Part shown: positions 11,499 through 59,066 of the stretch, piece by piece
How the letters are laid out: the number at the start of each line of letters is the position of its first letter
How positions within the stretch are numbered: the stretch's first letter is position 1
NCBI GenBank assembly: GCA_002897635.1
Contig: BDTD01000009.1
Location: forward strand, 54,754 to 118,753
DNA length: 64,000 nt
Reading direction: 5' to 3'
DNA from: a bacterium BMS3Abin11
Lineage (GTDB): Bacteria; Pseudomonadota; Gammaproteobacteria; BMS3Bbin11
Notes under the pieces: model-generated
What the model saw: only the letters and a program-made list of their open reading frames with translations
Told to the model about the DNA's origin: nothing
Database searches by the model: none
Made by a program: the position numbers and the translations under genes

Positions 11499-11665
11499 CC
11501 AGGGAACCTCTGATCTATTCATGAACTCTTTTTTTACGCTTATAATATCCAGTTTCTTCGTTGCAAACCCTCGCAATAGCTATCTAATACGTGCAATTTT
11601 CACCTCAAATCTGCATATTTTAAATCGCAACCTATCTCGTCCAGAATAAATCAGAGGCTCACTGG
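11499..11665. repeat. family A MITE-like repeat, diverged copy 3
   Basis: Left end AGGGAACCTCTGATCTATTCATGAA versus copy 1 AGGGCGCCTCTATTAATTCATGAA. The internal TCGCAATAGCTATCTAATACGTGCAAT and the right-end CCAGAATAAATCAGAGGCTC are also shared. Fills the cpdA-trmJ intergenic space. Confidence 0.6.
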
Positions 11666-20019: not shown

Positions 20020-20958
20020 TTATTTCCTGATATCCGGATTATTTAAAAAATCATCATAGGTTTTTCGTATGCCATCCTCCAGGCCTGTTTTAAACCTCCA
20101 GCCCAATTTATCAAGCCTGCTAATATCCATTCTCTTTTGCATTGTGCCGTCCTGTTTTGTTGTATCAAAAACAATATCACCCTCAAAACCTACCACCTTC
20201 TTTACCAGGCTGGCTAAATCCTTAATACTTATATCCTCGCCGGTGCCAACATTAATCAACTCGCCTATATCAGCAGTATCATACTGCTCCATCAGATAAA
20301 AACATGCTTCAGCCATATCATCAGCAAACAGGAACTCTCTCCTCGGCTTACCTGTACCCCAAACACTTACTACACTATCTTTATTGGTTTTTGCCTCATG
20401 AAACCGTCTTAATAGCATGGGTAGAACATGTGCATTTTCCGGGTGATAATTATCACCTATACCATATAAGTTCGAAGGCATTACACTAATATAATTTGTT
20501 CCATACTGATCATTAAATGCCCCGCATAATTTTATCCCTGCAATTTTTGCAATCGCATAGGGTTCATTTGTGGGTTCTAATGCCGAAGTAAGAAGGTCTG
20601 TTTCTTTTATCGGTTGTGGGGCGTTTTTAGGGTAAATACAGCTGCTGCCGAGAAATAATAATTTTGATACATCGTTTTTAAATGCTGACTCTATTATATT
20701 ATTCTGGATTTTAAGGTTTTCCAGTAAAAAGTCTGCACGATAGGTATTGTTGGCATAGATCCCACCTACTTTTGCAGCTGCAAGAAATACCCAGTCAGGT
20801 TTTTCTACTTTTAAAAAGTCATCGACAGCCTGCGGATCTAAAAGATCCAGTTGTTTATGTGTGCGAGTAATAATGTCATGGTAACCTCTGCTATTTGCAG
20901 TTCGGTACAAAGCACTTCCGACCATTCCTCTATGTCCGGCTATGTAAATCCTGGGCAT
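20020..20958 (-). CDS. fcl: GDP-L-fucose synthase
   Basis: RIYIAGHRGMVGSAL N-terminus, the SSCIYPK catalytic region, 312 aa. No gmd gene is adjacent. Confidence 0.85.
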   Translation of the reverse strand: MPRIYIAGHRGMVGSALYRTANSRGYHDIITRTHKQLDLLDPQAVDDFLKVEKPDWVFLAAAKVGGIYANNTYRADFLLENLKIQNNIIESAFKNDVSKLLFLGSSCIYPKNAPQPIKETDLLTSALEPTNEPYAIAKIAGIKLCGAFNDQYGTNYISVMPSNLYGIGDNYHPENAHVLPMLLRRFHEAKTNKDSVVSVWGTGKPRREFLFADDMAEACFYLMEQYDTADIGELINVGTGEDISIKDLASLVKKVVGFEGDIVFDTTKQDGTMQKRMDISRLDKLGWRFKTGLEDGIRKTYDDFLNNPDIRK

Positions 20959-34852: not shown

Positions 34853-34938
34853 GCCGGAGTGGTGGAATTGGTAGACACGCGAGATTCAAAATTTCGTGGG
34901 CTTTGCTCGTGTCGGTTCGAGTCCGACCTTCGGTACCA
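34853..34938 (+). tRNA. tRNA-Leu (anticodon CAA)
   Basis: GCCGGAGTGGTGGAATTGGTAGACAC... D-arm, anticodon loop TTCAAAA, long variable arm, T-arm GGTTCGAGTCC, acceptor ending CGGTACCA. 86 nt. The AT-rich accessory block begins just downstream. Confidence 0.85.
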
Positions 34939-35054: not shown

Positions 35055-36770
35055 TTAACGCTGAGAAATGGCATTTTTTTTACTTCGCCAACCGCCAACC
35101 AGTTCTGACAGTAGCATAAATCCAGCAATAATGAAGATTAGTAATACTGGATAACCAGGAGACATTGCCCGACCTATCTCAGAGTATGATGTAATCTGGA
35201 TCAGCGTCACGATTATCATGTTGGAGAGTATGGCAGCTAAAGCAGACAGCCCCAGGACGGTAGCAGGTCGTACTTTACACTTGATCAGCTCGTATATACC
35301 TCTGGCAGGAATCAAAAAAATGAACAATATGAAGAACCAGGGTACGAGGTGTCTATAAAAGTTATTCCATATATTACGAATAGTTCTTTTCTTCTTTTCA
35401 CTATTTTTCTTATAAAATTCAGGCCTTAAGGCCTGGATACTTCCTCGATCTACTTCGATTTTTTCATTTGTAACAGTTTCGAATAATTGAAATGTCCGGA
35501 ACCATCCTGCACTGAACTGACCTTCTTTTTTATAGTCAAATTTGTCGAAGGTAACTAGCCGTTTCAGATTATCATAGAATGTCGGAATGAGAAGTTTGGT
35601 AAATTCCTTATGCCAGGGGGGTACAAATGGCGACAGCAAACTTGCACATTCTAGCCTGCCTGAATTACAGGCTTTTTTTAGCTCACCACCCATTCTCTCG
35701 TAAAACTCGAATGTCTGTTTGATCGTTTTTGGGTTTTTTGACTGACTGAAATTGTAATATCCCGCTCGTTGTACGGCATCTCGAAATGCCCAGATAAAAA
35801 ATGCAGCAGGAATATCCACTCGATGGCCCTGCCACTGTTTACCTAAGTTTCCCTCGAGGTACGGTCTCAACTCCTGAAAGGCAGGACTCACTGCATAGGC
35901 TTTTATCCTGGCTTCCTTTACCACCGGATAGAAACGCCTCCAGCTATTTGTCTTGATTCGCAGTAGCCCACTATATGCTGATTCGAATTCGCTAGAATGA
36001 ATCTCCAGTGGCGTAAAGACGCCATAGCTCTGCCAGTTTAAAGTTGCCAGAATCAGCGTAGAGAACCAAACCAGAATCACTGGCGTAACATAGAGAACTG
36101 CTATCCTCCTCAGCTTGTAGCCCCTGTTGACCCAGACGCCATACAGGGTAAAAAATAGCAATACAAGTAAGGATGGAATGATCCATATCGCCTCTTCCCG
36201 AGTATGCCAGAATGCTGATAATGAGAAACCGAGTAATAATGACCAGAGGAATGGTTTACCTTTGCCAGAGAGTGTTCTTGCATATAGCCCGTATGCAGAA
36301 GCAATGACCAATATTGTTAGTGCCGGGTAGATACCTAACCGAAATACACGATCTACAATGATGGTAAAAGGATTAAATAGCAGGAATAAGTAGATTACAA
36401 ATAACCACCCCTTGTGTTTTACATCTGGTGATATTGCAATGATAAATACCACGCAGGCAAGCGCATAGAGTAGCTGCTGTGCGGTCAGTAATGGTATACC
36501 GGCAATATTGCTCATTGCTATCCATATTGGATAGAAAACCCCCTTCATCAGGGTATATTGGCTATACTGGTCGTATCGTCCTAACCAGTCTCCGTTTAGG
36601 ATGTAACTGGCAAGTGTAATAAAGTGGTTATCATCATGTGGTGCAAATACTGCTCTTAGAAGATATACGTCTGAGAGCCAGATTTTGTAGTAGGTGGTGA
36701 TAATGATAGCAATCGCCAGATACACCATACTACGAGAAATTGAAAAGTATTTTTCAGAGGATTGTTCCAT
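35055..36770 (-). CDS. polytopic membrane protein, possible GT-C-type glycosyltransferase
   Basis: 571 aa. About 8 N-terminal TM helices with an early loop motif APHDDNHF, a 220-aa soluble domain, then 3 C-terminal TMs. AT-rich. Last gene of the minus-strand trio. Confidence 0.45.
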   Translation of the reverse strand: MEQSSEKYFSISRSMVYLAIAIIITTYYKIWLSDVYLLRAVFAPHDDNHFITLASYILNGDWLGRYDQYSQYTLMKGVFYPIWIAMSNIAGIPLLTAQQLLYALACVVFIIAISPDVKHKGWLFVIYLFLLFNPFTIIVDRVFRLGIYPALTILVIASAYGLYARTLSGKGKPFLWSLLLGFSLSAFWHTREEAIWIIPSLLVLLFFTLYGVWVNRGYKLRRIAVLYVTPVILVWFSTLILATLNWQSYGVFTPLEIHSSEFESAYSGLLRIKTNSWRRFYPVVKEARIKAYAVSPAFQELRPYLEGNLGKQWQGHRVDIPAAFFIWAFRDAVQRAGYYNFSQSKNPKTIKQTFEFYERMGGELKKACNSGRLECASLLSPFVPPWHKEFTKLLIPTFYDNLKRLVTFDKFDYKKEGQFSAGWFRTFQLFETVTNEKIEVDRGSIQALRPEFYKKNSEKKKRTIRNIWNNFYRHLVPWFFILFIFLIPARGIYELIKCKVRPATVLGLSALAAILSNMIIVTLIQITSYSEIGRAMSPGYPVLLIFIIAGFMLLSELVGGWRSKKNAISQR

Positions 36771-36775
36771 TTTCT

Positions 36776-37642
36776 CTATTTCTCCGATGACACAGTTTGT
36801 CTTCCCTGATCAGTCCTGGCATAACTGAGATAATATTCTTTATAGGAAATAGGTTTGCTAATGCTAAACAGACACTCAAGTTTTATTAATACCTTTGATC
36901 TGTTGACATACATTAGATAATTAAGATATTTTTTGTTGTCCAGATCAGGATGCATAAAGCGTTCCTGACTGGTATCAATATCATACGGATGCAAATAGGT
37001 TGTTATCGGATCACCCAGTTTTAGATGATAACGAGCAGAATAGTTTATTATCGGATAGGGTATGACCCTGAAATATACCCCACCTGCCAGTGGTAGTCGA
37101 AGAAAAGGTATAGCGTGTAGAGTAATTGGTATTTCGTATATACCCTGAACATATTTTGGTTTACGGCCAAATTCTTTCCAGCCAAACAGTGGATTGGCTG
37201 CAGGTAACACTGAACTTGAATATTTGAAGCCAGATTCTGACAGGCATCTATAGGCCCATTGTGTTTGCTCGGTAAGTGAGAAGGTAGGTGCCCGGTATCC
37301 GATCACATCCTCTGCACCTGCAGTATACAATGAGTCAAGATTTCTCCTGACATCTTTAAGAAACTCTTCCGGTGTCTGTTTGTTTATTTGAATATGTTTA
37401 TCGCTATGACAGGCAATCTCATGACCATCTGCTATTATCTCTTTGATCAATGATGGGTATTTTCTCGCCACATTGCCGACGACAAAAAAAGTTGCCTTTG
37501 CATTATGCTGCTGCAGGAATTCCAGATATCGTTGAGTATTTTCAGGAACGCCCTCTCGATATGTGCTGCCATTTAATATCTGATCTCTAACGTCTTCCAG
37601 ATCAATGCTGAAAAGCAAATTCCCTTTATTTTTTCTGTTCAT
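36776..37642 (-). CDS. NodB-family polysaccharide deacetylase with DUF3473-like C-terminal region
   Basis: NodB motifs present: IDLED (Asp pair), HSDKH (His pair), YRAPTF (RxP). Confidence 0.75.
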   Translation of the reverse strand: MNRKNKGNLLFSIDLEDVRDQILNGSTYREGVPENTQRYLEFLQQHNAKATFFVVGNVARKYPSLIKEIIADGHEIACHSDKHIQINKQTPEEFLKDVRRNLDSLYTAGAEDVIGYRAPTFSLTEQTQWAYRCLSESGFKYSSSVLPAANPLFGWKEFGRKPKYVQGIYEIPITLHAIPFLRLPLAGGVYFRVIPYPIINYSARYHLKLGDPITTYLHPYDIDTSQERFMHPDLDNKKYLNYLMYVNRSKVLIKLECLFSISKPISYKEYYLSYARTDQGRQTVSSEK

Positions 37643-37693
37643 ATGGCCTTCAGCTATAACACGCTGTCGCTGTGAAAGAACGTAGGTTTGTTA

Positions 37694-38566
37694 TCAGTCT
37701 ACGCTACTCCTACGTATCAGGGACAGTTGTTCGGCAAGTAAGCCCAGCAAAAAAAACAATATTCCTGTAATGGTTAGAAGCAATGTACCGGCCTGGACAC
37801 CCTCACCTCTAAGCAGAAAGGGTAAACCCCAGATGATGCCGGCCAGAACAAAAATAATTGCAAGTGGTAGAAATATCCTGTTTGGATTAAATAATATAAC
37901 AATATTCAAAATCTCCAAAATTGTATCCAGTGCTGTCCTTGTATTTATAGTGCTAGTACCTGATATCCGGGACCTGATCTGTATGTCCTTCTCCAGTACA
38001 AGATGTTTTTGATTGATAAACACGAGAGTGATGATGTCGCTATATGCCATAGTATCCGGACATAAACGGATATATTTCTTGGCCAGATCAGATCTGTACA
38101 CTTTCATACCAGAGTTAAGATCAGTAATTTGAAAGGACATCAGTAATTTTGCAATACTACGAATCATGAATTTACCGAAACGTCGGTACCTGGAACCTTG
38201 ATGACTATCTCTCTTACCAATAACCATATCTGCATCAGTCACCATGAGATAATTAAACAACATTCCGATATCATCAAGAGAATGCTGTCCATCTGCATCA
38301 ACAGTGATCAGGAATTCTGTGTCAACCCTTTCAATGGCTGTCTTGATTGCGCTGCCATAGCCCCTGTTTATTTTGTGATGTATAACTGTCAGCATGTCAC
38401 CCTGATCAGCAGCATCAAGAATTTCCCCTGTAGTATCTGACGAGCCATCATTGACAACAATAAGCTTGTAACCATTTTTTCCGCAATACTCGCACATATC
38501 TTCAAGAAATGTAGGTAGCGACCCTTCTTCGTTGAATGCGGGAACAATTATCGTTAGATCTTTCAA
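37694..38566 (-). CDS. GT2 polyprenyl-phosphate sugar synthase (ArnC/GtrB/DPM1-like)
   Basis: IIVPAFNEEGSL...VVNDGSSD...DADGQH GT-A motifs plus two C-terminal TM helices, typical of Und-P-sugar synthases. Confidence 0.8.
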   Translation of the reverse strand: MKDLTIIVPAFNEEGSLPTFLEDMCEYCGKNGYKLIVVNDGSSDTTGEILDAADQGDMLTVIHHKINRGYGSAIKTAIERVDTEFLITVDADGQHSLDDIGMLFNYLMVTDADMVIGKRDSHQGSRYRRFGKFMIRSIAKLLMSFQITDLNSGMKVYRSDLAKKYIRLCPDTMAYSDIITLVFINQKHLVLEKDIQIRSRISGTSTINTRTALDTILEILNIVILFNPNRIFLPLAIIFVLAGIIWGLPFLLRGEGVQAGTLLLTITGILFFLLGLLAEQLSLIRRSSVD

Positions 38567-39088
38567 AAAATCTCTTCCTAGTGCGTTTTTTATGTTTTCG
38601 TAATTTTACCCTGATTGATTATCCCTGCAACTATAATTGGTCTAGTCAACTACGACTCAATCTTCTCGAGATGAGTACAGCATGCCTAAAATGCTTTGCG
38701 ACAATTCTGTTTTGTATCGAAACACTGCTGTCCCATAAATCTGCGGAGGGATATCTCAACGACTGAACACACCTGTAGGTTGGGCTGAAGAATGAAGCCC
38801 AACAATGTTTCTTCTGACACGCTGTTGTTGGGCTTCGTCCCTCAGCGCCAACTTACACGAGAATGACTTTTCATGTCTCTTGCCCTCAATTCTGGCCATA
38901 CTTGAGTAGCTGGAACCCTTAAAAAGAGATTAGGGTGTTTTTTATGGGACAGTAATGGTATCGAAACTAACCAGTGACTAGAAGTTTTCGAACGTCATAA
39001 AAAACTGATTTACGCTTTACCCTGTGAAAACAGGTGGTTTATACTTCCAGCACCTCCTGGGTGCCGTCCCATTCACTGGATTATTTCC

Positions 39089-40903
39089 ATGTCTTTAAAT
39101 AACAAGTACGTCACCTTCCTGCTTTCTGTTTCGATATTTATCTTATTCTTTAGCTTTTTTTTTATTACATCTAATATTCTACCTCAGGGTGCAGGCCCAG
39201 ACTGGAAATCGAATACCGATGTAACAAAATTTATCTATGAAAATGGCAGGCTGGCAGTTCTCCCTGATGACGAAAAGGATTTGCACTTCACGGTTTATGG
39301 TGGCACGCGGGCACTAAGACCGCCCCTTTCCTATATCGTGTCCGCAGTTGCTGCAAAAGCTCTTGCATTCACCAATCTTGATTCATATGTGCTGTTTCGC
39401 AAAGGATCCGCACTTTTATGTGCCTTAGCCCTGGCTCTAACATTTTATGCTCTGAGTATTTACTTTAACAGTTATGCAATTGGGATTTTGGGCTCCACAA
39501 TTATAGGTCTAATGCCGCAATTCACTTTCATTGCTTCATATAATAATGATGACAGCGGTGCAATTTTCTCTGCCACACTTATGATTGCCGTGCTGGTTCG
39601 TATATACCGTTATGGGGCATCAAATACCAATGCAATTTTACTCGGCCTTGCTGGCGGACTAGTCGTGCTTTCAAAGATGACTGCATGGCTATTAATGCCA
39701 TCTGTCGTTCTATTTCTAATCATTTTCTTCCGGTCTCCTGTGCGCTCACTACTGCGTTACGCCTCCATTGCAGGAGTGGTCTTTATTCTAGCTGGCGGCT
39801 GGTGGTTTGCGTTTAACACCTATCACTATGGGATCGATGATCCACTGCTGAAAAAAATTACCACCACAGTAATAGAGCAGCACAGGCGTCTGCCACCGGG
39901 TTCAGGTGTAGGATTTGCCGCACAGGGAATAGGCTTTTATGAATTATTTGCTGAAAACTATAAAAATTTCCTCGGCGAAACGGCTAAGGCAACCATCGGT
40001 AATCTGGACTGGCTAAAGCTAAAAGTTGGCCCGCTACAGTACACTGTCTATCTGGGTATTTTCTTTTTTGCCCTGTTCTATTATTTTTTCAGCCTATCGG
40101 CATATCTGATAAAACGATTCAGGAATGTAACCGTAAATGATGAACATACCAGGCAGTTAATATTCGAATCACTGCTGCTGTTGATGATAGTTTTTCAGAT
40201 AACCATGTATACCTGGACCAATATCAATAATGATATACAGATACAGGGAAAATACATCATCCCTATTTTTCTTGCCATCCTGCTTTTATTCTTTTCCGGA
40301 ATATATCGATTACCGGGAGTGACCGCCGTTTCAATCAGGAAATTGTCTGAATCGGGTTTCCCTGTAAACGCTTCAAATACTGGCAGGTTTGGTGTATTTT
40401 TGGCAAGCCTGATGTTTATTGTCTATGTACACTGGGATGCATGGCAGAATTATATCATCCCATTTTATCAACCACCTGCGTATGATATAAAGCTGGGAGA
40501 ATTTCATTCTATTCCACTAAATTTAGATCTGAACCAGCGCGCAGATAATCTGGATATACGAGAAACCGGTGGAGGTATTGAGTATATTTCCACAGGTAAA
40601 GACCCAAAAGTCATCTTTAAAAAGGATATCTGCCAGAAGATTTCAACAACATCGATGTTATATCTTGAGTTTAATGCAAAGAATGCAGACACCCTCCAGT
40701 TCTTCATCGATGAAGGTGGAGGTTTTTCGGCGAATATTTCATCCACTGCTACTTATAAACAGGGAGACAACACCCTTTTGCTCCCAATTTCAGCTAACAA
40801 GTGTCAATATCTGCGTTTCGATCCATTTATCGAAAATGGGACATTCATCCTGAAGAAATTTAAGATTGCACCAATGACGATTGTCCCAAGACGAAAGAAT
40901 TAA
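39089..40903 (+). CDS. GT-C glycosyltransferase of the ArnT/PMT (GT39/GT83) type
   Basis: 604 aa. First-loop DDEKDLHF and RPPLSY motifs, about 12 TM helices, a C-terminal about 150-aa soluble domain. Divergent from the GT2-deacetylase operon. Contains a T9 tract near the 5' end. Confidence 0.7.
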   Translation: MSLNNKYVTFLLSVSIFILFFSFFFITSNILPQGAGPDWKSNTDVTKFIYENGRLAVLPDDEKDLHFTVYGGTRALRPPLSYIVSAVAAKALAFTNLDSYVLFRKGSALLCALALALTFYALSIYFNSYAIGILGSTIIGLMPQFTFIASYNNDDSGAIFSATLMIAVLVRIYRYGASNTNAILLGLAGGLVVLSKMTAWLLMPSVVLFLIIFFRSPVRSLLRYASIAGVVFILAGGWWFAFNTYHYGIDDPLLKKITTTVIEQHRRLPPGSGVGFAAQGIGFYELFAENYKNFLGETAKATIGNLDWLKLKVGPLQYTVYLGIFFFALFYYFFSLSAYLIKRFRNVTVNDEHTRQLIFESLLLLMIVFQITMYTWTNINNDIQIQGKYIIPIFLAILLLFFSGIYRLPGVTAVSIRKLSESGFPVNASNTGRFGVFLASLMFIVYVHWDAWQNYIIPFYQPPAYDIKLGEFHSIPLNLDLNQRADNLDIRETGGGIEYISTGKDPKVIFKKDICQKISTTSMLYLEFNAKNADTLQFFIDEGGGFSANISSTATYKQGDNTLLLPISANKCQYLRFDPFIENGTFILKKFKIAPMTIVPRRKN

Positions 40904-40924: not shown

Positions 40925-41398
40925 CTACTTTCTTTTATCCAGGAAGAATGTCTTTAACAAGCTTGAACATTCCTGCTGTAATACACCGGTCGTCACGGTG
41001 ACACGATGATTCAAATGTGGAGAATTCAATAAATTAAACACACTACCTGCCGATCCCGTGCGTGGATCAGGTGTTGCGATAACGATACGCCTGATTCTTG
41101 CTTGCACAATGGCACCTGCACACATTGGGCAAGGTTCAAGCGTGACATAGAGGGTGGTATCAGGTAAACGATAATTATTGAGCTGTTTTGCAGCATCACG
41201 TAAAGCGAGTATTTCTGCATGGGCAGTAGGGTCATCTGCTGATATTGGCTGGTTCCATCCTTGTCCGATGCATTGATTGTCAGAATTAACCAGCACCGCA
41301 CCAACCGGTACTTCTTCGTGCGCTGCTGCAATTTTTGCCAGCTCCCAGGCTTTGTTCATCCAGTCTAGGTCGATATCGTCACTCTCTTCTGGAAACAT
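40925..41398 (-). CDS. tadA: tRNA-specific adenosine deaminase
   Basis: HAEILALR...PCPMCAGA CDA zinc motifs. Starts at the internal MFPEESDD Met of the longer ORF. Confidence 0.9.
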   Translation of the reverse strand: MFPEESDDIDLDWMNKAWELAKIAAAHEEVPVGAVLVNSDNQCIGQGWNQPISADDPTAHAEILALRDAAKQLNNYRLPDTTLYVTLEPCPMCAGAIVQARIRRIVIATPDPRTGSAGSVFNLLNSPHLNHRVTVTTGVLQQECSSLLKTFFLDKRK

Positions 41399-41399
41399 C

Positions 41400-41745
41400 T
41401 TACTCCCACTCGAGATTATAAATAGCCCGACAAAGTCCATTACTAGCGCGGGTTTCCCAGTGGCCGATGGTGCGCGCCAGATGGGTAAGCTCGGCGCTGG
41501 TGGGCGCCTTGACCCAGCGGAACCGGGTGCTTCCATCGGAATGGTCAGTGTACACACCATCGAGGAACAACATATGGAAATGGATATTCAGATTGAGTGC
41601 CGAGCCAAACCGCTGGATGAGGGTGACCGCCCCGGTCCGGGCTGTCTTTTTTGTCAAGCCCGCTTTCTTGATCAGATGGGTGGCAATCACACGGTAGACA
41701 ATGCCGAGCACCCCGCCCGTGACGGCCGGGTGGATTACCAGGGTG
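41400..41745 (-). pseudogene. IS91-family (HUH Y2 rolling-circle) transposase internal fragment
   Basis: ...VYRVIATHLIKKAGLTKKTARTGAVTLIQRFGSALNLNIHFHMLFLDGVY... matches my memory of the IS91-family catalytic region. It is truncated at both ends. High G+C begins here. Confidence 0.55.
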
Positions 41746-42682
41746 CCCGACTGTTGCTGAGGCACAGATCTACCAGGTCGTCGAGGCGCGCGGTCCCGGC
41801 ACACATCACGGTATCCGCGCCACCCCAGTAAATCTTTACGCCGCCGTCGTCATCCGCGACTGCACCGCAGGTAAAAACGACGTTGTGTACATAGCCCGTG
41901 ATCTCCCAGGGATCCTCTGGGGCTAGCACCCATTCATCCGAAACGCCGATAATCTTCGCCGGATTGGCAAGATCGTGCAGCGCCACGCCGAGACGATAGA
42001 CTGCCCCGTCCATGGTCTCGAATACCCCGTGGTAGATGCTGAGCCAGCCGCGTTCGGTGCGGATCGGTGTCGCACCGGGACCGATCTTCGACTCGTCCCA
42101 GTGATACGGCACCGGCTTCATCACCACCTCGGAATCGCCCCAGTGCACCAGGTCCGGCGACCATGACAGCCACACGGACCAGGGGCTGATCTCCGAATGC
42201 GGTCGGTCCAGGCGGGCGTAGCGGCCGTTGAACCGCTGCGGAAAGATAACGACATTGCGCATGTCCGCCTGGGTGATCAACGCCACGCGCTCAATGGATC
42301 GGAAATCACAGGTCCTGGCCAGCCCGATACGCACACCGTGGCGCGAATAGGCGCTGTAGGTAATCAGGTATTCCCCGTCTATACACGAGATTCTGGGGTC
42401 CTCCACCCCAAAAGCCTCGTATTCACCAAAGGCGCCATCTGTCGACGGCACCAGGAACGGCTCCGGGCCGACCGTAAATTTGAAGCCGTCCTCACTCTCG
42501 GCGATGCCGATGATCGACCGGCCGCTACGCAGGTGGGATCGAAACAGCATGATGGTGCGGCCGTCGTATTGTGTCATGCCGGCGTTGTGCACGGTCTCCA
42601 CCGGGTAGGGGATGTCGTCCCGCGTAAGGATCGGGTTGTCCGGACAGCGTTCGATGATTGGCGGTGGTTTAGCTGCGGTCAT
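41735..42682 (-). CDS. GH130 family glycoside hydrolase / beta-mannoside phosphorylase-like
   Basis: Five-bladed beta-propeller GH130/DUF377 signature (NPIL...DIPY, FNAG, EDPRI, YSAY, PWE). The start ATG is preceded by GGAGG. Overlaps the upstream gene's stop by 14 nt. Confidence 0.75.
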   Translation of the reverse strand: MTAAKPPPIIERCPDNPILTRDDIPYPVETVHNAGMTQYDGRTIMLFRSHLRSGRSIIGIAESEDGFKFTVGPEPFLVPSTDGAFGEYEAFGVEDPRISCIDGEYLITYSAYSRHGVRIGLARTCDFRSIERVALITQADMRNVVIFPQRFNGRYARLDRPHSEISPWSVWLSWSPDLVHWGDSEVVMKPVPYHWDESKIGPGATPIRTERGWLSIYHGVFETMDGAVYRLGVALHDLANPAKIIGVSDEWVLAPEDPWEITGYVHNVVFTCGAVADDDGGVKIYWGGADTVMCAGTARLDDLVDLCLSNSRAPW

Positions 42683-44015
42683 AGTCATCCTCCAGCCGGA
42701 TAATATCGTCTTCCCCGAAATAATCTCCCATCTGCACCTCGACCAGAACCAGCGGGATATCACCGGGGTTCGTGATCCTGTGCACTGCACCCTTTGGGAC
42801 ATCCACGGACTGCCCCGGCCTGAGCGGGATTTCCTGATCCCCCACGGTGACCAGCGCTTCGCCACTGACCACGGTCCAGTGCTCGGCCCGGCGCCGGTGC
42901 TTCTGCAGGCTCAGCCGCTGGCCCGGTTGGACGATGATCTCCTTGATTTTGTGATCATCCCGCTCGAGCAGGTTTTCATAGTGTCCCCACGGCCGATAGT
43001 TCTCCCGCTGGTCGAGGATGCTCTGGTAGACCTCCAGGTAGGCGCGTGCCATGTGCCGGCTGGTAAAGCGCTGTTCCACCTCGTCCCGGCAGGCGCGCCG
43101 GTCGAGCGAATCAATCCTGTCCACCGCCTGTACCGCGGCGTTCACATCGGCCACGATGAATCCCGTCTGGCCGTCGCGAATGAGTTCCGGCATTGAGCCC
43201 CGCCCATAGGCGATCACCGGCGTGCCACAGGCCATGGACTCGACCACGCTCAACCCGAACGGTTCGTCGAAGTGAATCAGGTGCAACAACCCCAGCGCAC
43301 CGCCCAGAAGTTCCTGTCTCTTCTCCGGCCCGACGGAGCCAACATATTCCACCATGGATCCATCGATGTGCGGCTCGACCTGTTCCTGGAAGTATGCCTC
43401 GTCCTGCACGATCCCGGCAATCACCAGCCGTAGTCCGGCCCTGCGCGCCACCTCAATGGCATCGTGGACACCCTTATGGTGGTGGATACGCCCGAAGAAC
43501 AACAGGTAGTCTCCCGCGTCTTCGCGGTAGGGGAATTGTGCGAGATCGATGCCATGATGGATGGTTGCGGCGTAATCGAGTTCACAGCTCCTGTCGGCCT
43601 CACTAATGGCCACATAATAGGTGCTGTCATTGTACTTTTTATAAACGGGCAAAATCGACGGCGAAGAGAATCCATGGATCGTCGTGACCAGCGGTGTAGG
43701 GGTAAAACCGCTGTAACTGAGCGGCAGAAAATCGAACTGGTTGTGGATGAGGTCGAACTCATCCGCCCGCCTGAACACCTCGGCGATATGCAGGCATTCC
43801 CAGACCTTGGGATCAATCGAGGGGTCTTCTGAGTAAGGGCGTTCACAAACCCAGGAAAGTTTACCACGGGTAATGGAATCCCCGGTCGCAAACAGTGTCA
43901 CATCGACACCCATCGCCACCAGCTGTTCTGTCAGGAGGCTGACCACATTTTCCCACGGCCCGTAATGGCGTGGGGGTGTGCGCCAGGACAAGGGACTCAA
44001 CATCGCAATCTTCAT
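42669..44015 (-). CDS. GT4 glycosyltransferase fused to a C-terminal mannose-6-phosphate-isomerase-type cupin
   Basis: GT-B/GT4 core (E..GG motif region, EPFGLSVVESMACGTPVIA) followed by the cupin HRRRAEHWTVVSGEALVTVGDQEIPLRPGQSVDVPKGAVHRITN. Confidence 0.7.
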   Translation of the reverse strand: MKIAMLSPLSWRTPPRHYGPWENVVSLLTEQLVAMGVDVTLFATGDSITRGKLSWVCERPYSEDPSIDPKVWECLHIAEVFRRADEFDLIHNQFDFLPLSYSGFTPTPLVTTIHGFSSPSILPVYKKYNDSTYYVAISEADRSCELDYAATIHHGIDLAQFPYREDAGDYLLFFGRIHHHKGVHDAIEVARRAGLRLVIAGIVQDEAYFQEQVEPHIDGSMVEYVGSVGPEKRQELLGGALGLLHLIHFDEPFGLSVVESMACGTPVIAYGRGSMPELIRDGQTGFIVADVNAAVQAVDRIDSLDRRACRDEVEQRFTSRHMARAYLEVYQSILDQRENYRPWGHYENLLERDDHKIKEIIVQPGQRLSLQKHRRRAEHWTVVSGEALVTVGDQEIPLRPGQSVDVPKGAVHRITNPGDIPLVLVEVQMGDYFGEDDIIRLEDDYDRS

Positions 44016-44327
44016 AAAAGAGGCCTGCGTGAACACCTGCGCGCGATCCACGCGCCAGCGGGGTGTTGTTATGATCAGGAACAAATCTGATAGCACAGTA
44101 ACACGATTTGCCTGACGGGCTACAATAACAAAACACCTGACAAAACGAAACCACCGCCCATTCAGATAAGGCTTGGACAGGGTGGAAATTTTACCCTTGC
44201 TGCCGCTAAAGATAGTATAGTGTGTTGAAACAAAAATAGTCTAATCTATTGCCAATTCAACTATAATCCGATATAGCCTGCCACGCAGACCGAACCAGGC
44301 GCAGAGGGCTTGTACCACGTGGAAGCA

Positions 44328-45812
44328 ATGAAAATGGAAAGCAGACCTGACCCCACCACTCCACTCGCGCGGCGCAAGTCGATCGTGATGAAGGCGAAGA
44401 TCAGTCGCGTCATTACCCGGCCGTATCTGCCGTCCGGTGAAGAACGCATCCAAAAAGTTATCCAGCGGGTGTTGAGCCTGGACGAGAATGAGGCGGATAC
44501 GGTGCTGGAAACCCTCTTGCAGGATTTTTCCCACCGCCACCGCTACTTCAGGGAGACCCTGGAGCAAAATTTTGCACGGGTAGCTGACTTTTTGCCGGAT
44601 ATCGATCAGGTATCGAAGCAACGGCGGCTTCTGATCGGCGCGTACTTTACCGCGGAATACTCAGTGGAGGCGGCGGCGTTGTTCAATCCCTCAATCGTTC
44701 AGGTTCCGAACCAGGAGGCGGATCCTGAAGGCACCTGCCGGTTTGTTATGAGCTTCCGTGCCACTGGTGAAGGCCACATCTCCTCCATCGAGTTTCGCAG
44801 CGGGGTTATCGATACCAACAACGATATCTACTTCGATGGCCTGAGCGACTACGTAGCAACCCCGGAAATCCACCCCAACCCAAGCTATGACCGGCACCTG
44901 TTTCGGCTGAAACTCCAGGAGATGGGGGCGAATAATGCGGTAACGCACCAGCTTCTAAACAGGCTGCCGGACAATTTCACCTTCAACGATCTGCAGGGAA
45001 AGATCGCCGAACTCCAGAACAACGGCCAGTTTCCGCCACAGGAGCAGACGGATGCCATTGACATGGCAATGTGGCTGGCGCAATCCAATTACCAGATTTT
45101 GTTTCGCAAGGAACACGCAATTTCCGAGCGGGTGATCTTTCCCGTGTCGGAATCCGAGCGCAAGGGGATCGAGGATGCCCGCTTTGTACGTTTCGTCGAC
45201 GACGACGGCACGGCGGTCTACTACGCCACCTATACCGCGTACAACGGAGAGACGATCCTGCCGCAACTCATCGAGACCCGCGATTTCCTCTCCTTCAAGC
45301 ACATTACGCTGAATGGAGCCCAGGTACAGGGCAAGGGCATGGCCCTGTTCCCGAGAAAGATTGGGGGCAACTACGTGATGCTGTCGCGCCAGGATGGTGA
45401 GAACAATACCATCATGTTCTCGGACAACCTGCACTTCTGGCAGCAGGCCCAGATTCTTCAGGAGCCTGAGTTCCCCTATGAATTCATACAGATGGGCAAC
45501 AGCGGCTCACCCATCGAGATGCCCGAAGGCTGGCTGGTCGTGACCCACGGGGTGGGTCCGATGCGGACCTACAGCCTCGGCATCGAGTTGCTCGACCTGG
45601 ACGACCCGACCCGGATCATCAACCGGATTGAGGAGCCGATCCTGGTGCCGAATGCGTATGAGCGGGAGGGGTATGTCCCGAACGTGGTTTACAGTTGTGG
45701 CGCACTCATCCACCAGGACGAATTGATCATCCCCTACGCCTCGGGCGACCAGCGCTGCGGCATAGCAACCCTGCAGCTACCACAGCTGATGGCCAGGCTG
45801 ACAGCACGGTAG
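44328..45812 (+). CDS. GH130-like beta-propeller protein with an uncharacterised about 250-aa N-terminal extension
   Basis: C-terminal about 240 aa shows GH130/DUF377-like blocks (GIEDARFVRFVDDDG...YYATYTAYNG, GWLVVTHGVG, PNVVYSCGA). I recognise no family for the N-terminal half. The ATG at 44328 follows a GGAAG RBS; the listed ORF starts at an upstream TTG. Confidence 0.6.
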   Translation: MKMESRPDPTTPLARRKSIVMKAKISRVITRPYLPSGEERIQKVIQRVLSLDENEADTVLETLLQDFSHRHRYFRETLEQNFARVADFLPDIDQVSKQRRLLIGAYFTAEYSVEAAALFNPSIVQVPNQEADPEGTCRFVMSFRATGEGHISSIEFRSGVIDTNNDIYFDGLSDYVATPEIHPNPSYDRHLFRLKLQEMGANNAVTHQLLNRLPDNFTFNDLQGKIAELQNNGQFPPQEQTDAIDMAMWLAQSNYQILFRKEHAISERVIFPVSESERKGIEDARFVRFVDDDGTAVYYATYTAYNGETILPQLIETRDFLSFKHITLNGAQVQGKGMALFPRKIGGNYVMLSRQDGENNTIMFSDNLHFWQQAQILQEPEFPYEFIQMGNSGSPIEMPEGWLVVTHGVGPMRTYSLGIELLDLDDPTRIINRIEEPILVPNAYEREGYVPNVVYSCGALIHQDELIIPYASGDQRCGIATLQLPQLMARLTAR

Positions 45813-45828
45813 GGAATGGTAGTCGTCG

Positions 45829-48198
45829 CTATTCCGACGATACTTTCTGAACATCAAGCCGGGTGGGCTCTTCCTCCGGTGTAACCCGATCCCAGCTGCG
45901 GTGGTTATAGACGGCGAGCAGCGCCATGAGCCAGCAAAGCGTGGACTCTGCGCCCTGATTTTCATTCGCGCCCTGCGCTTCCAGCCCGTCCCGGCAGCCG
46001 CCGGTCGCATAATCGCAGAGCGGAACCCCCAGATCGTTCTCGCCTTGGTACCAGTTGAGACAACGGTAGGCATAGGTAATCCATTCCTCATCCCGCGTGC
46101 AGTTGAATGCCTCGATACAGGCGTCCACCATCGCGGCCGCCTCGATGGGTTGTTGATCGAATCGCGCTTTTTCGCCGCCTCTGGGAAACCAGCCGTGATT
46201 GCCGATAGCGACAAAGTGCCGGCCCTTCTCATCGGTCTGAACCTGCTTCAACCAGTCGAGAGAGCGCAACCCCATCTCCAGCATCTCGCTGTCGGGAAGC
46301 CACTGCCCAGACAGCAGTAAAGCCTGTGGCAACCGGGCATTGTCGTAGGTCAGGATGTTGTCACACCAGGGCCAGTCTTCGCTGGCGCACCCCAAGGGCA
46401 CTTCCTGCGGGGCGAAATCCCTGAACCGCTGCATCAGTCGTTCCGAGAGTATCTTGCGCATCATTTTCGCGCGGCTGTCCCCGCTGTAGCGGCCCAGATA
46501 GGCATGAATACCGATAATGGCGAAGGCAATCGCCCGTGGGTGGGTGAAATGTTCGGTGGCGTCCAGTGCACGATGGAACAGGTCGACCGAAAAACCCACC
46601 TGCCCCTTATCCCGCCCCAATGCCACTGCGACGCCCAGCCCCCACACCGCACGACCGTGGGAGTCCTCCGAACCTGTTCCCTCTAGCCAGTAGCGATCAT
46701 AGGACATAAAGTTGCGGAAGCGGCCGGTCTGGTCATTGAAGGCGTGACCCAGAAAACTCAGATAAGTGGCGGCAAGGCCGCTTTGTGCTGAATCCAGAGG
46801 CTGGAGGTCCTGTAGCGTGACCGCGACGATCAACGCGCGGGCATTATCGTCCACGCAATAGCCGTGTGTCCGGTCTGCAACCGTGTACTTGGCGTGTTGC
46901 AACATACCCGTGTCATCGGTCATCCGGCGTAAATAGTCCAGCTTGATCTCCGGTAGCCGTTGCTGGCGTAGTCCGAGGGTCTCCAGCCCGCGCCTGGGTA
47001 CGTTCTTCCTCAATCGCTGTCGTTTGGCTTCTGCAAAGGTGTCGAGATAGCGGCGGCCTACATCACTCCAGACCATTTTGCGACCGTATTGATAGGCCCT
47101 CTCCTGGATGGCGCGGCACTCATCGGGATGATCCAGGAGGTCGATGACTTCCCGCGCCAGAGCGGCCTGATCCCGGAATGGAACCAGCCTGCCCCGATCA
47201 TCAGCGAGCAACTCCTGAGCGTGCCAGAAGGGTGTGGATATCACCGCTTTGCCCATCCCAAGCGCATAGGCAAGCGTGCCGGAAATAATCTGCGCCTCAT
47301 TCAGGTACGGAGTGACATAAATATCTGCCACACCGATAAACTCCAGCAGATCTTCGTCGGCAACGAAACGATCATGAAAAACAATGTGCTCCGAAACGCC
47401 GAGTTCTTTTGCACGCCTGTGAAGGCTGTTTCTGTAATCCTCCCCATCTTCCATCTTAAGGTGCGGATGGGTGGCGCCTACCACCATATAGATGACCTGC
47501 GGGTGGGCCTTCACGATCTCCGGCAAGGCATCTATGACCACCTCAATGCCCTTGCCCGGCGAAAGCAGGCCGAAGGTCAGGATGACTTTCTTTCCGGATA
47601 CGCCGAACTTGTCCTTGTAGGCATCGGATTTGACAAACGGCACGTCAGGGATGCCATGATGTATAAGGACAATCTTCTCCTCCGGCACCTGGTAGATATC
47701 GCGCAGGAATTCGACTGAGCGTTCACTCATCACCACCAGCCGGTCTGAGAACTCGGCAAGTTGCATCATGATGTGCCGGTCCTGAAGGTTCGGATCCTTC
47801 AGGATTGTGTGCAGAGTCGTCACAACCGGCATATTGAGATTACGCAGCAGCTCGATAATAAAGCTGCCCCGCTTGCCACCAAAAATACCGTATTCATGCT
47901 GGAGACAGATCACATCCACCTGGTTAAGGTTGCATAAGTCGGCCGCCAGGCTGTATTCGTTCAGTTGAGACTGGTTGATCTCGAAGCGCACCTGAGACGG
48001 GTAGGAATAGCCTGTTGGCCGGTCGTTCATTGCGACCGCCCAACAGGCTTTGTCCGGTGCATTCAGCGCGATGGATTCAAGCAGGTGGGTGGTGAACGTG
48101 GCGATACCACACTGCCGGGGGAGGTGGTTGCCGATGAGGACGATCGACTTGAGAGCCTCCCATTCTGGTCTTGAGCCTGTCGTGCCGAAGTTATCCAT
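45829..48198 (-). CDS. 789-aa fusion: N-terminal GT4 glycosyltransferase plus C-terminal about 400-aa alpha/alpha-barrel glycoside-hydrolase-like domain
   Basis: N-terminal half has GT4 features (GG-loop, FGLLSPGKGIEV, E..G..V.ST). The C-terminal half (HGYCVDDNARAL..., ENQGAEST) tentatively resembles (alpha/alpha)6 hydrolases. Confidence 0.6.
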   Translation of the reverse strand: MDNFGTTGSRPEWEALKSIVLIGNHLPRQCGIATFTTHLLESIALNAPDKACWAVAMNDRPTGYSYPSQVRFEINQSQLNEYSLAADLCNLNQVDVICLQHEYGIFGGKRGSFIIELLRNLNMPVVTTLHTILKDPNLQDRHIMMQLAEFSDRLVVMSERSVEFLRDIYQVPEEKIVLIHHGIPDVPFVKSDAYKDKFGVSGKKVILTFGLLSPGKGIEVVIDALPEIVKAHPQVIYMVVGATHPHLKMEDGEDYRNSLHRRAKELGVSEHIVFHDRFVADEDLLEFIGVADIYVTPYLNEAQIISGTLAYALGMGKAVISTPFWHAQELLADDRGRLVPFRDQAALAREVIDLLDHPDECRAIQERAYQYGRKMVWSDVGRRYLDTFAEAKRQRLRKNVPRRGLETLGLRQQRLPEIKLDYLRRMTDDTGMLQHAKYTVADRTHGYCVDDNARALIVAVTLQDLQPLDSAQSGLAATYLSFLGHAFNDQTGRFRNFMSYDRYWLEGTGSEDSHGRAVWGLGVAVALGRDKGQVGFSVDLFHRALDATEHFTHPRAIAFAIIGIHAYLGRYSGDSRAKMMRKILSERLMQRFRDFAPQEVPLGCASEDWPWCDNILTYDNARLPQALLLSGQWLPDSEMLEMGLRSLDWLKQVQTDEKGRHFVAIGNHGWFPRGGEKARFDQQPIEAAAMVDACIEAFNCTRDEEWITYAYRCLNWYQGENDLGVPLCDYATGGCRDGLEAQGANENQGAESTLCWLMALLAVYNHRSWDRVTPEEEPTRLDVQKVSSE

Positions 48199-48529
48199 AG
48201 ACGCCTTTTTTTTGCCGGTATTGTTGTGCCGGTGGGTGAATGATTCGATGTTGATACTCCAGTAGTCGAATGCCGCCAGATTGAGAAGCGTACTGCCACT
48301 CGTCAGCTGCCCCTATCTTACATGAATTCAAGGTGATTGGTCGGCTGGACGCCAGGCACCGCAAAACCAGACCACACGTTTTTAAGGTACGTGATATTTT
48401 TAACGCCGATGGGCGGTTACACACCTGCCTTTTTCACGTACGGTATTTTTTTAGAGACACCCTCATCTCGTTGGCGATGTGCTCGAAAGCCTCATACAAT
48501 AAGTTAAAAGCCCCCTACTACAACTTACA

Positions 48530-49726
48530 TCATAATTCCATTATTCCTGACACATTAGGGTGCCTATCAACACGATAGCCTGATTCAACCACGAACTGTG
48601 TCCCAAACATCTTTAAGTTTTCAACTAAATTTTTGCAATATTGAAACCCCGTCTGAGCATCCATTCTTTCCTGGTGTAGGCTTTTTTGCAGCTCGGTTTC
48701 AGATAAATTATCTGCCAGACAGGTCACACTCGTCGGTTTTTTGTTATAAACGTGCGTGTTTAGATCGCTCTCGGCTCGATGCCCCTGAGCATAATAATCC
48801 ACAACCATCTGTATGGCTAAAAATTGGACTTGCGGTTTTTCACTACCCAGCATCAAGAGATCAAAAAATATTTTTGGTAAGTTGAGATCACCCTGACCCA
48901 TTTGAACTCCCAGCTGTGCCCAATATTTGTCGCTCCTGGCTATGAGGACATCCTTGCAATGCGCACCGCGAATATATTCCTGTAAAACCATTATATCGTC
49001 TAACGGCTCTCGGCCAGCTGTAACGGGATTGCCAAAGTCAAACAAAATACCAAGACTGGGATTATTGACGGCCTTAACAATTTCCAGCATTTCAGGACCT
49101 GTTAAGAATTCGTGTTGCTCCAGAAGAAGTTCAATACCCCATTTTTCCACCAATTCAGCGGCGTAACAAAGATCTTTAATCGCTTGCTCGACAATTTCAG
49201 AAAAAGTGCCACCCAATCTGATGTAGCAACGAATAACCGGAACGCCCATGGCACGGGCAACGCGAACCGCTTCTTCAATTTCGCTTTTATCCGTGGAACT
49301 AATATCTATCTGTAAGTCGAGCCTGCGCTCTTTTTTCTGGTATGCAAGATCACGCAGATATTCGTCCGATTCACCTGTCAAGCAAATACAAGGATCGCCT
49401 TTGGCTACATGGAGTTGCGCGCCCGCAAATCCCCACTTTCGCGCATAGGCTAAAAATTCATCGATGGTCAGCTGGTCATGCTTGAAATTAAGCTCCAGAC
49501 TATAACGGTTTAAATACCAAATAATATCATCAACCCGAGTGACAATTATTTTTGCCAAATTTTGATCCAGTATTGGAATTGGAATTCCAGCTACAGGGCC
49601 TCCCGATGGGTTAAGGAATTCCTGGAATTGTTGATTTGCGATCACGCTAGAAGGGGTAAATGTTGATTCATTTATTTTGCCAAACTTGTTAAAATTATTC
49701 ATTTTTAGTCCTGTAATGATTGCCAT
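48530..49726 (-). CDS. sugar-phosphate isomerase/epimerase family protein (xylose-isomerase-like TIM barrel)
   Basis: 398 aa, AP-endonuclease-2 / XylA-like TIM-barrel blocks (E...H..D.G.G...E). Longer than typical family members at both ends. Confidence 0.6.
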   Translation of the reverse strand: MAIITGLKMNNFNKFGKINESTFTPSSVIANQQFQEFLNPSGGPVAGIPIPILDQNLAKIIVTRVDDIIWYLNRYSLELNFKHDQLTIDEFLAYARKWGFAGAQLHVAKGDPCICLTGESDEYLRDLAYQKKERRLDLQIDISSTDKSEIEEAVRVARAMGVPVIRCYIRLGGTFSEIVEQAIKDLCYAAELVEKWGIELLLEQHEFLTGPEMLEIVKAVNNPSLGILFDFGNPVTAGREPLDDIMVLQEYIRGAHCKDVLIARSDKYWAQLGVQMGQGDLNLPKIFFDLLMLGSEKPQVQFLAIQMVVDYYAQGHRAESDLNTHVYNKKPTSVTCLADNLSETELQKSLHQERMDAQTGFQYCKNLVENLKMFGTQFVVESGYRVDRHPNVSGIMEL

Positions 49727-49982
49727 CTACAACGTAGGCGTTCTACCTGGCGTGGTTAGCCTTGCTCTACGAGATTTTAACTATTTAAGGGAATTCTAAA
49801 TATGAAATGTGTCAGTTTGACTACATTGAAATGATTAGAGCGAGAATACGTCTGTTCGTTGGAGCAACATAACGGGTTAATCCAAGTTCCCCTAGATCGT
49901 GGGACTCATCAAAAAGAGGTTATGGCGTCACTTTTCTCTGGTTGAAAAATTGTTAAATTATTCGTAACTATTCGATCTAATC

Positions 49983-59004: not shown

Positions 59005-59066
59005 TGCTATTTCGATGAAATTATCTTCAAATAAACTACCCCGCAGCAAGCTGACGGGGTATTAAA

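Follow-up and report, generated by a model that had tools for sequence, protein, structure and literature searches.

In the 64,000-nucleotide stretch of contig BDTD01000009.1 analysed here (bacterium BMS3Abin11, Gammaproteobacteria; the whole stretch is referred to as the window, and coordinates without a locus label are its positions), three co-directional genes are predicted to encode a GT2 glycosyltransferase, a CE4 (NodB) deacetylase carrying a DUF3473 domain and a 571-residue (aa) membrane protein of GT-C fold. We consider it slightly better than even (a probability of about 0.55) that they form a self-contained module that decorates the cell envelope with an amino sugar built on a lipid carrier. 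A succession of synthase, deacetylase and GT-C transferase is the best reading of the locus, with the 571-aa protein as the GT-C enzyme. A preliminary description of this DNA had proposed the same logic; it was right in outline, but gave the key role to the wrong membrane protein, a 604-aa GT-C encoded divergently from the other three genes. The elements in question are:

37694-38566, minus strand: GT2 polyprenyl-phosphate glycosyltransferase of the ArnC/GtrB/PpgS type (290 aa), first gene of the operon
36776-37642, minus strand: CE4 (NodB) de-N-acetylase with DUF3473 (288 aa)
35055-36770, minus strand: GT-C-fold membrane protein of a family without a Pfam model (571 aa)
38567-39088, no strand: divergent intergenic region (522 nt), with presumed promoters in both directions and an insertion resembling a miniature inverted-repeat transposable element (MITE) inside it
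39089-40903, plus strand: second GT-C, of a DUF2142/PMT_2-like family (604 aa), divergent from the operon

The gene order (GT2, NodB and large membrane protein on the minus strand, with the 604-aa gene divergent) is as first described, and since only 51 nt separate GT2 from NodB and 5 nt separate NodB from the 571-aa gene, the three minus-strand genes fit an operon.

A portable three-gene linkage

The 571-aa family was surveyed with one genome per GTDB species, which gave 359 relatives; the 79 best loci among them were taken into the analysis. Homologues of the GT2, the NodB/DUF3473 protein and the 571-aa protein are adjacent in 15 of these 79 (the best 79 of the 359 relatives), with orthologous deacetylases scoring 272-346 bits and orthologous GT2 enzymes 252-381 bits. 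The 15 linked loci span Desulfobulbaceae, Gammaproteobacteria and a metagenome-assembled genome (MAG) labelled Leptospira biflexa; save for two truncated at contig ends (L043, L046), they are among the closest 571-aa homologues, and clustering of their open reading frames (ORFs) left only the three genes in common. The linkage is tight and portable: at 43-47% identity to the 571-aa protein, the three-gene set recurs without a 604-aa homologue in L003, a MAG of the Gammaproteobacteria, where a toxin-antitoxin pair and urease genes flank it, and in a metagenome contig (L004), in another context.

Some members of the family occur in multiple copies. Desulfobulbaceae bacterium A2 has two tandem 571-aa paralogues with NodB/DUF3473 (no orthologous GT2 was called nearby), and three further loci (L016, L018, L021) have tandem paralogues with one GT2 and one NodB between them, from which we conclude that several GT-C enzymes on one donor are common in this family. 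About 19 distant members lack a deacetylase and stand directly after a GtrB-like GT2 of ~400 aa (in Opitutae, phyla of the candidate phyla radiation, Competibacter and others). In Cohnella zeiphila the order is GtrB-like GT2, GtrA, 571-aa homologue, within an ABC-transporter/rhamnose polysaccharide locus, and in one family member (P0363) GtrA and the GT-C domain are naturally fused. These GtrB-adjacent members, the Cohnella order and the fusion tie the 571-aa family as a whole to polyprenyl-phosphate-sugar donors, the deacetylase-linked form being one subset.

The alternative favoured by the preliminary description was that the 604-aa protein is the ArnT-like terminal transferase for the amino sugar, in which case the 571-aa protein would be an accessory (flippase or scaffold). 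The 604-aa protein does have a predicted GT-C fold, with ArnT as its top Foldseek match, and its divergent arrangement with the operon is kept in two relatives (L002, L100) and probably in further contigs (by proxy only). Comparative genomics argues otherwise: a 604-aa homologue lies within 10 kb of none of the best 79 loci of the 571-aa family. In the reverse test, which covered 76 metagenome loci of the 604-aa family, an adjacent GT2 and NodB were found in L100 only (65% identity). Of the 76 loci, 21 have an upstream flank of 5 kb or more, and at none of these 21 was a GT2, NodB or 571-aa homologue present. Their 604-aa homologues, at most 60% identical, neighbour instead GT4 enzymes, asparagine synthase (AsnB), methyltransferases and LPG_synthase_TM proteins, with UbiA-type genes in two contexts. 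Besides, the fold predicted for the 571-aa protein is that of a GT-C enzyme and not of a transporter, and an acidic residue that closely follows the protein's first transmembrane (TM) helix is invariant. We therefore hold this assignment of roles to be distinctly unlikely. The conserved partner of the GT2 and the deacetylase is the 571-aa protein, and a choice made by closest likeness to ArnT would have named the wrong transferase.

Only in close relatives of the window organism is the 604-aa gene linked to the module, an association kept to ~65% identity (L002, L100); further contigs probably carry homologues of both membrane proteins, as judged by proxy only. What looked in L096 like a rearrangement upstream of the 604-aa gene is a contig end inside a 157-bp MITE, and is uninformative on operon linkage.

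The 571-aa membrane protein

AlphaFold2 models of both membrane proteins were built from alignments of 52-53 sequences. The 571-aa model (predicted local distance difference test, pLDDT, 91.8; predicted template modelling score, pTM, 0.91) begins with ~8 TM helices, continues with a periplasmic domain of helical structure (residues ~250-450) and closes with 3 TM helices; its multi-TM core superposes on solved GT-C enzymes. The conserved acidic residue is Asp46, invariant and just after TM1, which would place it in the first periplasmic (extracytoplasmic) loop. The pair C368/C375, likewise invariant, predicts a disulfide bond in the periplasm. On this structural basis the protein is predicted to be a GT-C-fold glycosyltransferase. 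The earlier label of a membrane protein of unknown fold has thereby been overtaken, the fold now being GT-C by AlphaFold2 prediction.

Sequence comparison gave nothing comparable. The protein has no match in Pfam or NCBIfam; searches of PDB chains with the 571-aa and 604-aa proteins found nothing; and 52 family members scanned singly gave only sporadic sub-threshold matches to STT3, GtrII and Wzy_C. Against E. coli ArnT, the hhalign probability was below 1% for either GT-C family profile, the likeness being at fold level only. Both families are deep and made of uncharacterised environmental homologues, and with sequences clustered at 50% identity that of the 571-aa protein counts 4,560 representatives at E <= 0.001 and 2,716 at E <= 1e-30.

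Many of these members (P0369, P0371, P0391 and P0399, among others) have N-terminal extensions of ~200 aa, with no Pfam domain apart from the GtrA fusion mentioned above, and those of ~1,150 aa (P0383, P0394, P0440) have extra regions without a Pfam domain. A distant member, P0114 (L172 7001-9247), bears at its N-terminus a 40-residue remnant of PIG-L, a de-N-acetylase of N-acetylglucosamine (GlcNAc), and lies inside a duplicated cassette of GtrB-like GT2 genes; an intact PIG-L gene stands 5 kb off (L172 14514-15257). Here the GT-C family may have been paired with a de-N-acetylase a second time, independently. We do not rely on the fusion itself, which amounts to a 40-residue remnant in a duplicated cassette.

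The 604-aa membrane protein

The 604-aa model (pLDDT 90.0, pTM 0.82) has Foldseek matches to ArnT (1.3e-5, the top match), AglB, Pmt4, ALG12 and EmbB, in agreement with the GT-C fold first proposed, and the beta-sandwich at its C-terminus (residues ~465-600) gives matches to CBM6, CBM29, CBM4 and other modules of this kind. We accordingly read it, from the predicted structure, as a GT-C enzyme that also bears a domain like a carbohydrate-binding module (CBM). By analogy with EmbB/EmbC, AftD and the GT136 founder ORF12 (PMC11127046), the CBM-like domain points to a glycan acceptor. The PMT_2 match (8e-5, 23.3 bits) is just under the gathering score of 26.1, and many homologues carry precomputed matches to PF13231 or PF09913. 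Residues D38, D61, R74, R77, P78, D154, D155 and K196 are invariant in 53 homologues, and D61, R74, R77 and P78 among them bear out the loop motifs named in the preliminary description.

Several neighbourhoods of this family deserve mention in their own right. A HAD-UbiA fusion (L010 15770-17218) lies near one homologue, and UbiA together with a GMC (flavin adenine dinucleotide-dependent) oxidoreductase and an SDR protein near others (L012 and L013, 1480-6060). UbiA-type gene sets are a signature of polyprenyl-phosphate-pentofuranose (phosphoribose/arabinofuranose) donor pathways (PMC11127046), and by this analogy the 604-aa family may include pentofuranosyltransferases. In L009, a 409-aa protein with no recorded Pfam match follows hisS-yfgM-bamB-der and directly precedes a 604-family GT-C. 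Two window ORFs of ~400 aa each (57832-59049 and 720-1973) have no Pfam or NCBIfam match, and the former has the position of the 409-aa protein of L009.

The GT2 enzyme

The GT2 (PF00535 at 1.6e-29) consists of a GT-A domain followed by two C-terminal TM helices, and its TTG start lines up with the N-termini of its orthologues. The closest solved relative is ArnC (9hwj, E 1.5e-16, residues 2-282), followed by GtrB sll0501 and DPMS, while E. coli ArnC aligns over the full length, C-terminal TM helices included, at 26% identity. The complete orthologues keep the motifs DDGS and DADGQH, and none of the 16 aligned sequences (window protein included) departs from D92. With a DxD-bearing GT-A domain, C-terminal TM helices and full-length alignment to solved members, the protein has the hallmarks of a polyprenyl-phosphate glycosyltransferase. 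The top NCBIfam matches, to AglJ, PpgS and ArnC (73-77 bits) and to a haloarchaeal dolichyl-phosphate-hexose transferase, all fall far below their equivalog cut-offs and are all to polyprenyl-phosphate-sugar synthases. The enzyme is not an ArnC orthologue (73.4 bits against a cut-off of 529 for NF007986); the architecture is shared.

We thus classify the protein, from its sequence, as a full-length ArnC/GtrB-type polyprenyl-phosphate glycosyltransferase and not a processive synthase. This agrees with the undecaprenyl-phosphate-sugar synthase first suggested; placement in a cellulose/chitin-synthase-like family, which would have told against that suggestion, is not borne out, the best solved relatives being ArnC, GtrB and DPMS.

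The deacetylase

The deacetylase belongs to the CE4/NodB family (PF01522 3.5e-22; 79.1 bits against a gathering cut-off of 23.1) and carries PF11959 (DUF3473; 1.2e-20). Its catalytic motifs (the Asp motif, HxxxH, RxP[Y/F] and the LxH-type His) are intact, as the preliminary description had it: H79, H83, R117-A-P-T-F and H218-P-Y-D221 are invariant in 16 aligned sequences (window protein included), and the N-terminal motif S[IV]DLED[VI]RD, which begins at residue 12, is conserved in the complete sequences. The protein has no signal peptide, TM segment or other export signal. The catalytic motif starts at residue 12, so that a signal peptide or anchor would have no space, and a cytoplasmic location is predicted. 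It is not an ArnD orthologue: E. coli ArnD gave only a 42-residue local BLASTP match (E 1e-5), and no ArnD model is among its NCBIfam matches.

The best curated match is TIGR03006, the XrtA/PEP-CTERM polysaccharide deacetylase (188.2 bits, 1.5e-55). This match speaks for the main rival to the pathway proposed here, namely that the deacetylase acts on a cytoplasmic exopolysaccharide or O-antigen repeat unit linked to undecaprenyl diphosphate (Und-PP), in the manner of HfsH or of XrtA systems, and that the GT2 and the GT-C enzymes separately add an unmodified side-chain sugar in the Gtr manner. HfsH, whose example underlies this rival, is a CE4 enzyme of the cytosol proposed to deacetylate lipid-linked precursors of the holdfast (PMC5362036), and most 571-family members have no adjoining deacetylase, both of which would suit such a division of labour. 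However, the TIGR03006 score is below the equivalog cut-off (188.2 vs 276.2 bits), no exosortase, Wzx/Wzy or initiating transferase was found among the scanned ORFs of the cluster and the remaining window, and the three genes are the only unit conserved across very different neighbourhoods, which is hard to square with a separate polymer pathway. We judge a repeat-unit substrate rather unlikely. The same score qualifies the earlier view of the DUF3473 tail as typical of PEP-CTERM loci: the PF11959 domain is there, and the membership in the TIGR03006 family that would go with such loci is not supported.

Pipelines of the Joint Genome Institute (JGI) tag many close homologues of this deacetylase as ‘PEP-CTERM system associated’, and the window protein, as said, scores under the cut-off; several of the tagged homologues may share contigs with 571-aa homologues (by proxy only). 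The tag is probably a systematic over-annotation of this deacetylase subfamily.

Proposed pathway

In the series of steps that we propose, the GT2, an enzyme of polyprenyl-phosphate type, would transfer a sugar, presumably N-acetyl-hexosamine from a common UDP-N-acetyl-hexosamine (UDP-HexNAc), to undecaprenyl phosphate at the cytoplasmic face of the membrane. The CE4/DUF3473 enzyme would then remove the N-acetyl group from this lipid-linked sugar, its presumed substrate, in the cytoplasm to yield polyprenyl-phosphate-hexosamine, and a flippase would carry the product across the membrane. The 571-aa protein, with its GT-C fold and its genomic coupling to the other two genes, would be the enzyme that passes the free-amine sugar, glucosamine or galactosamine, to a periplasmic acceptor, which may be lipid A, lipopolysaccharide core, O-antigen, exopolysaccharide or protein. 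The 604-aa protein, associated with the module only in this lineage, is probably a second periplasmic transferase, likely acting on a glycan and using either the same donor at another site or a different polyprenyl-phosphate-sugar. More tentatively, and short of even odds, we suggest that the GT2, CE4/DUF3473 and 571-aa genes constitute a self-contained unit that puts a cationic free-amine hexosamine on an envelope polymer or lipid, and that this unit occurs in many uncultured diderms, including relatives of cable bacteria and vent Gammaproteobacteria.

Several points weigh against this pathway. The cluster has no flippase gene (none of GtrA, ArnE/F or MATE type), and the activities of all the subfamilies are predictions from sequence, structure models and context. 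The sugar is not readable from the GT2 sequence, AglJ, PpgS and ArnC scoring about equally. The nearest curated family of the deacetylase is one of exopolysaccharide deacetylases (TIGR03006), and a cytoplasmic CE4 could act on Und-PP-linked oligosaccharides, as proposed for HfsH (PMC5362036). The GT-C assignment of the 571-aa protein draws on its predicted structure and gene context, because neither at the sequence nor at the profile level is it detectably similar to ArnT or the 604-aa family (hhalign comparisons of its family with the 604-aa family and with E. coli ArnT were negative). Lastly, at least four close 571-aa homologues with adequate flanks (L019, L026, L029, L034) have no neighbouring GT2 or NodB.

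A glycolipid head-group pathway like gpgSDF or hexSDF, in which GlcNAc placed on a membrane lipid such as phosphatidylglycerol or diacylglycerol is deacetylated to a glucosamine (GlcN) lipid and translocated by the large membrane protein, would also explain a glycosyltransferase, a cytoplasmic deacetylase and a polytopic membrane protein side by side, a combination that matches the gpgSDF logic (PMC12713373); in L096, moreover, an LPG_synthase_TM (GpgF-like) gene adjoins a 571-family paralogue. The protein families, however, are not the same (GT4 for GpgS, COG3233 for GpgD, UPF0104 for GpgF), the window GT2 aligns over its full length with ArnC-type polyprenyl-phosphate transferases, and the window membrane protein has a predicted GT-C fold with a conserved catalytic-type Asp. 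We regard a glycolipid product as very improbable, and retain polyprenyl-phosphate-hexosamine, used by the 571-aa GT-C, as the proposed intermediate.

Genomic setting of the cluster

The cluster lies between two boundary genes, both outside the functional module:

34853-34938, plus strand: tRNA-Leu(CAA) (ARAGORN; Rfam 51.3 bits), left boundary
40925-41404, minus strand: tadA (tRNA adenosine deaminase; NF008113 197.9 bits against a cut-off of 150), right boundary

The tRNA is the sole one in the window, and the Rfam scan gave nothing besides it. The flanks are housekeeping in nature, with queA-tgt-yajC-secDF on the left and tadA on the right. As an ORF, tadA (40925-41560, 211 aa) is too long at its 5' end, where it runs into the junction region; the TadA profile covers residues 66-210 only and the L096 orthologue has 160 aa, so that the true length is likely ~160 aa, as far as these alignments indicate.

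The GC content of the cluster is 0.410, against 0.461 in the flanks (5.8-kb windows, standard deviation 0.016, minimum 0.43), which is about 3 standard deviations low; the drop is real yet modest (5 points). No integrase was found among the window ORFs or their Pfam matches, nor any second copy of the tRNA 3' end in the window with up to 3 mismatches allowed. In L002, a relative known from a metagenome, the four genes recur between tRNA-Leu(CAA)/queA, as in the window, and the end of the contig, with DNA identity of ~69% across the cluster and 75% across the flank. A mobile tRNA-associated island was therefore rejected, the lower GC being the only feature that fits one: without an integrase or an attachment-site-like repeat of the tRNA 3' end, and at the same site in a relative of ~66-70% identity (L002), the cluster is a low-GC resident of the lineage and not a demonstrable mobile island. 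Of the AT-rich island at tRNA-Leu(CAA) that had first been described, the lower GC stands, and neither the sharp fall in composition nor the mobility does. A promoter scan of the intergenic region did no better than shuffled sequence, and the search for terminator-like sites gave no clear operon end.

Other features of the window

Two MITE-like elements were recognized:

38724-38956, no strand: MITE-like insertion in the divergent intergenic region, with terminal inverted repeats ACTGCTGTCCCATAAA / TTTATGGGACAGTAAT and a 10-bp direct duplication GTATCGAAAC
11501-11657, no strand: second MITE (~157 bp), intergenic in the window, with terminal inverted repeats CCTCTGATTWATTC...GAATWGATCAGAGG

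The first has inner hairpins (GTTGGGCT...AGCCCAAC) and a DNA fold z-score of -5.9, and L096 has the corresponding empty site, with a single GTATCGAAAC. An 87%-identical copy of the second occupies L096 1-157, upstream of the 604-aa gene, at the contig end.

To the right of tadA, positions 41405-49800 have a GC content of 0.55 (vs 0.46), a stronger compositional anomaly than that of the cluster itself. This block contains:

41400-41804: IS91-type (Y2_Tnp) transposase fragment, left bound of the block
41735-42865, minus strand: GH130 mannoside-phosphorylase-like gene
42669-44096, minus strand: GT4 fused to a mannose-6-phosphate isomerase/cupin domain
44310-45812, plus strand: second GH130 mannoside-phosphorylase-like gene
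45829-48198, minus strand: GT4 (789 aa)
48530-49726, minus strand: xylose-isomerase-like TIM barrel

The block has the appearance of an island gained by horizontal transfer, for the metabolism or synthesis of mannosides. Relatives at ~91% DNA identity have ~8 kb between tadA and the GH130 gene (L096 2645-9717, L097 1887-10248) that is lacking at 41398-41660 of the window. This extra DNA encodes an LPG_synthase_TM protein (a GpgF-like putative flippase), a 552-aa paralogue of the 571-aa GT-C, an Acetyltransf_6 GNAT protein (HfsK/Fem-like) and a methyltransferase. Homology of the window to L096 and L097 stops at 41398, beside the transposase fragment, which suggests a deletion or replacement scar at this point.

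In the left flank, the gene of lowest GC (20020-20958, 0.392) stands alone amid housekeeping genes. It was considered as a UDP-HexNAc epimerase and proved to be a GDP-L-fucose-synthase-like epimerase/reductase (473 bits, just under the 500-bit cut-off), unrelated to the module.

Implications

Free-amine sugars on lipid A, lipopolysaccharide and wall polymers alter surface charge, and the known systems that place them control resistance to cationic peptides and polymyxin, phage adsorption and immune recognition. The scheme itself was already known; what is new here is that a portable three-gene module unites a GT-C family lacking a Pfam model with a deacetylase of the CE4/DUF3473 type and a GT2 resembling ArnC, next to which a second GT-C with a CBM-like domain stands in the window. 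On our reading the module would carry this scheme into many environmental lineages via different enzymes. If the more tentative suggestion made above is true, the 571-aa family (~4,500 cluster representatives, no Pfam model) would be the founder of a new GT-C (CAZy) family, and the CE4/DUF3473 proteins automatically labelled ‘PEP-CTERM associated’ would be polyprenyl-phosphate-HexNAc de-N-acetylases. A testable function is thereby proposed for a large unannotated GT-C family and for a CE4/DUF3473 subfamily.

Comparison with known systems

The window module has its scheme in common with ArnC/ArnD/ArnT, which place 4-amino-4-deoxy-L-arabinose on lipid A in E. coli and Salmonella, but judging from their sequences none of the cluster proteins is an Arn orthologue. 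The GT2 reaches 73 bits where the ArnC cut-off is 529, the deacetylase matches ArnD over 42 residues and carries DUF3473, and neither GT-C has profile similarity to ArnT. The lack of ArnA and ArnB, already noticed in the preliminary description, extends over the 64-kb window (ArnA, ArnB and ArnE/F are absent from the ORFs of the cluster and of the remaining window), and the donor would be a common UDP-HexNAc.

The Francisella FlmF2/NaxD/FlmK and Bordetella LgmA/B/C systems do not need ArnA/ArnB: an ArnC-like GT2 makes undecaprenyl-phosphate-HexNAc, which is de-N-acetylated, and a GT-C transfers the hexosamine. NaxD and LgmC belong to the YdjC family and are not known as CE4 enzymes. The Francisella and Bordetella GT-C enzymes are ArnT homologues, whereas those of the window are not, and their product is galactosamine (GalN) or GlcN on lipid A phosphates, while nothing in the window points to lipid A. 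FlmF2 is arnC-like (PMC8149597), and LgmB adds GlcN to lipid A phosphates (PMC11401268).

The Gtr (GtrA/GtrB and the serotype-specific GT-C GtrC) and Gram-positive CsbB/GtcA/YfhO types also pair a polyprenyl-phosphate-sugar synthase with a GT-C, and decorate glycans after polymerisation. Their gene order is met among distant 571-family members (Cohnella), as is the GtrA fusion of P0363. The window module, by contrast, has a deacetylase where GtrA would be (no GtrA-like ORF was found in the cluster or the intergenic region, so the three-component Gtr arrangement is not present), its GT2 is a short form of ~290 aa, and none of the Pfam models for Gtr or YfhO matches the 571-aa family.

For the 604-aa protein, a counterpart by layout only is the GT136 enzyme ORF12 of Citrobacter youngae (which with ORF14 and ORF15 makes up a three-component pentofuranose system), a GT-C that ends in a beta-rich carbohydrate-binding module (Kelly et al. 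2024, PMC11127046). The HAD-UbiA fusion of L010, near a distant 604-aa homologue, resembles ORF15; in the window, no UbiA-type or MATE gene is among the scanned ORFs.

In gpgSDF (GlcN-phosphatidylglycerol of P. aeruginosa) and hexSDF (C. difficile), a cationic amino-sugar lipid is made by a three-gene logic (PMC12713373), but the GT4, COG3233 and UPF0104 proteins all differ from those of the window, and the membrane lipid that results is an end product and no donor for a GT-C.

Lastly, the mycobacterial and corynebacterial PpgS makes polyprenyl-phosphate-GalNAc (N-acetylgalactosamine) and the GT-C Rv3779 puts GalN on arabinogalactan, with the deacetylase and the flippase ‘as yet unidentified’ (PMC9671496). 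PpgS is among the best NCBIfam matches of the window GT2, far under the cut-off (75 vs 370 bits), and its pathway has a glycan acceptor, which fits the CBM-like domain of the 604-aa protein. The window differs from PpgS/Rv3632/Rv3779 in having no Rv3632/GtrA-like gene and in having a CE4/DUF3473 gene inside the operon, and CE4/DUF3473 is thus a candidate enzyme type for the missing deacetylation step of mycobacterial GalN decoration (PMC9671496).

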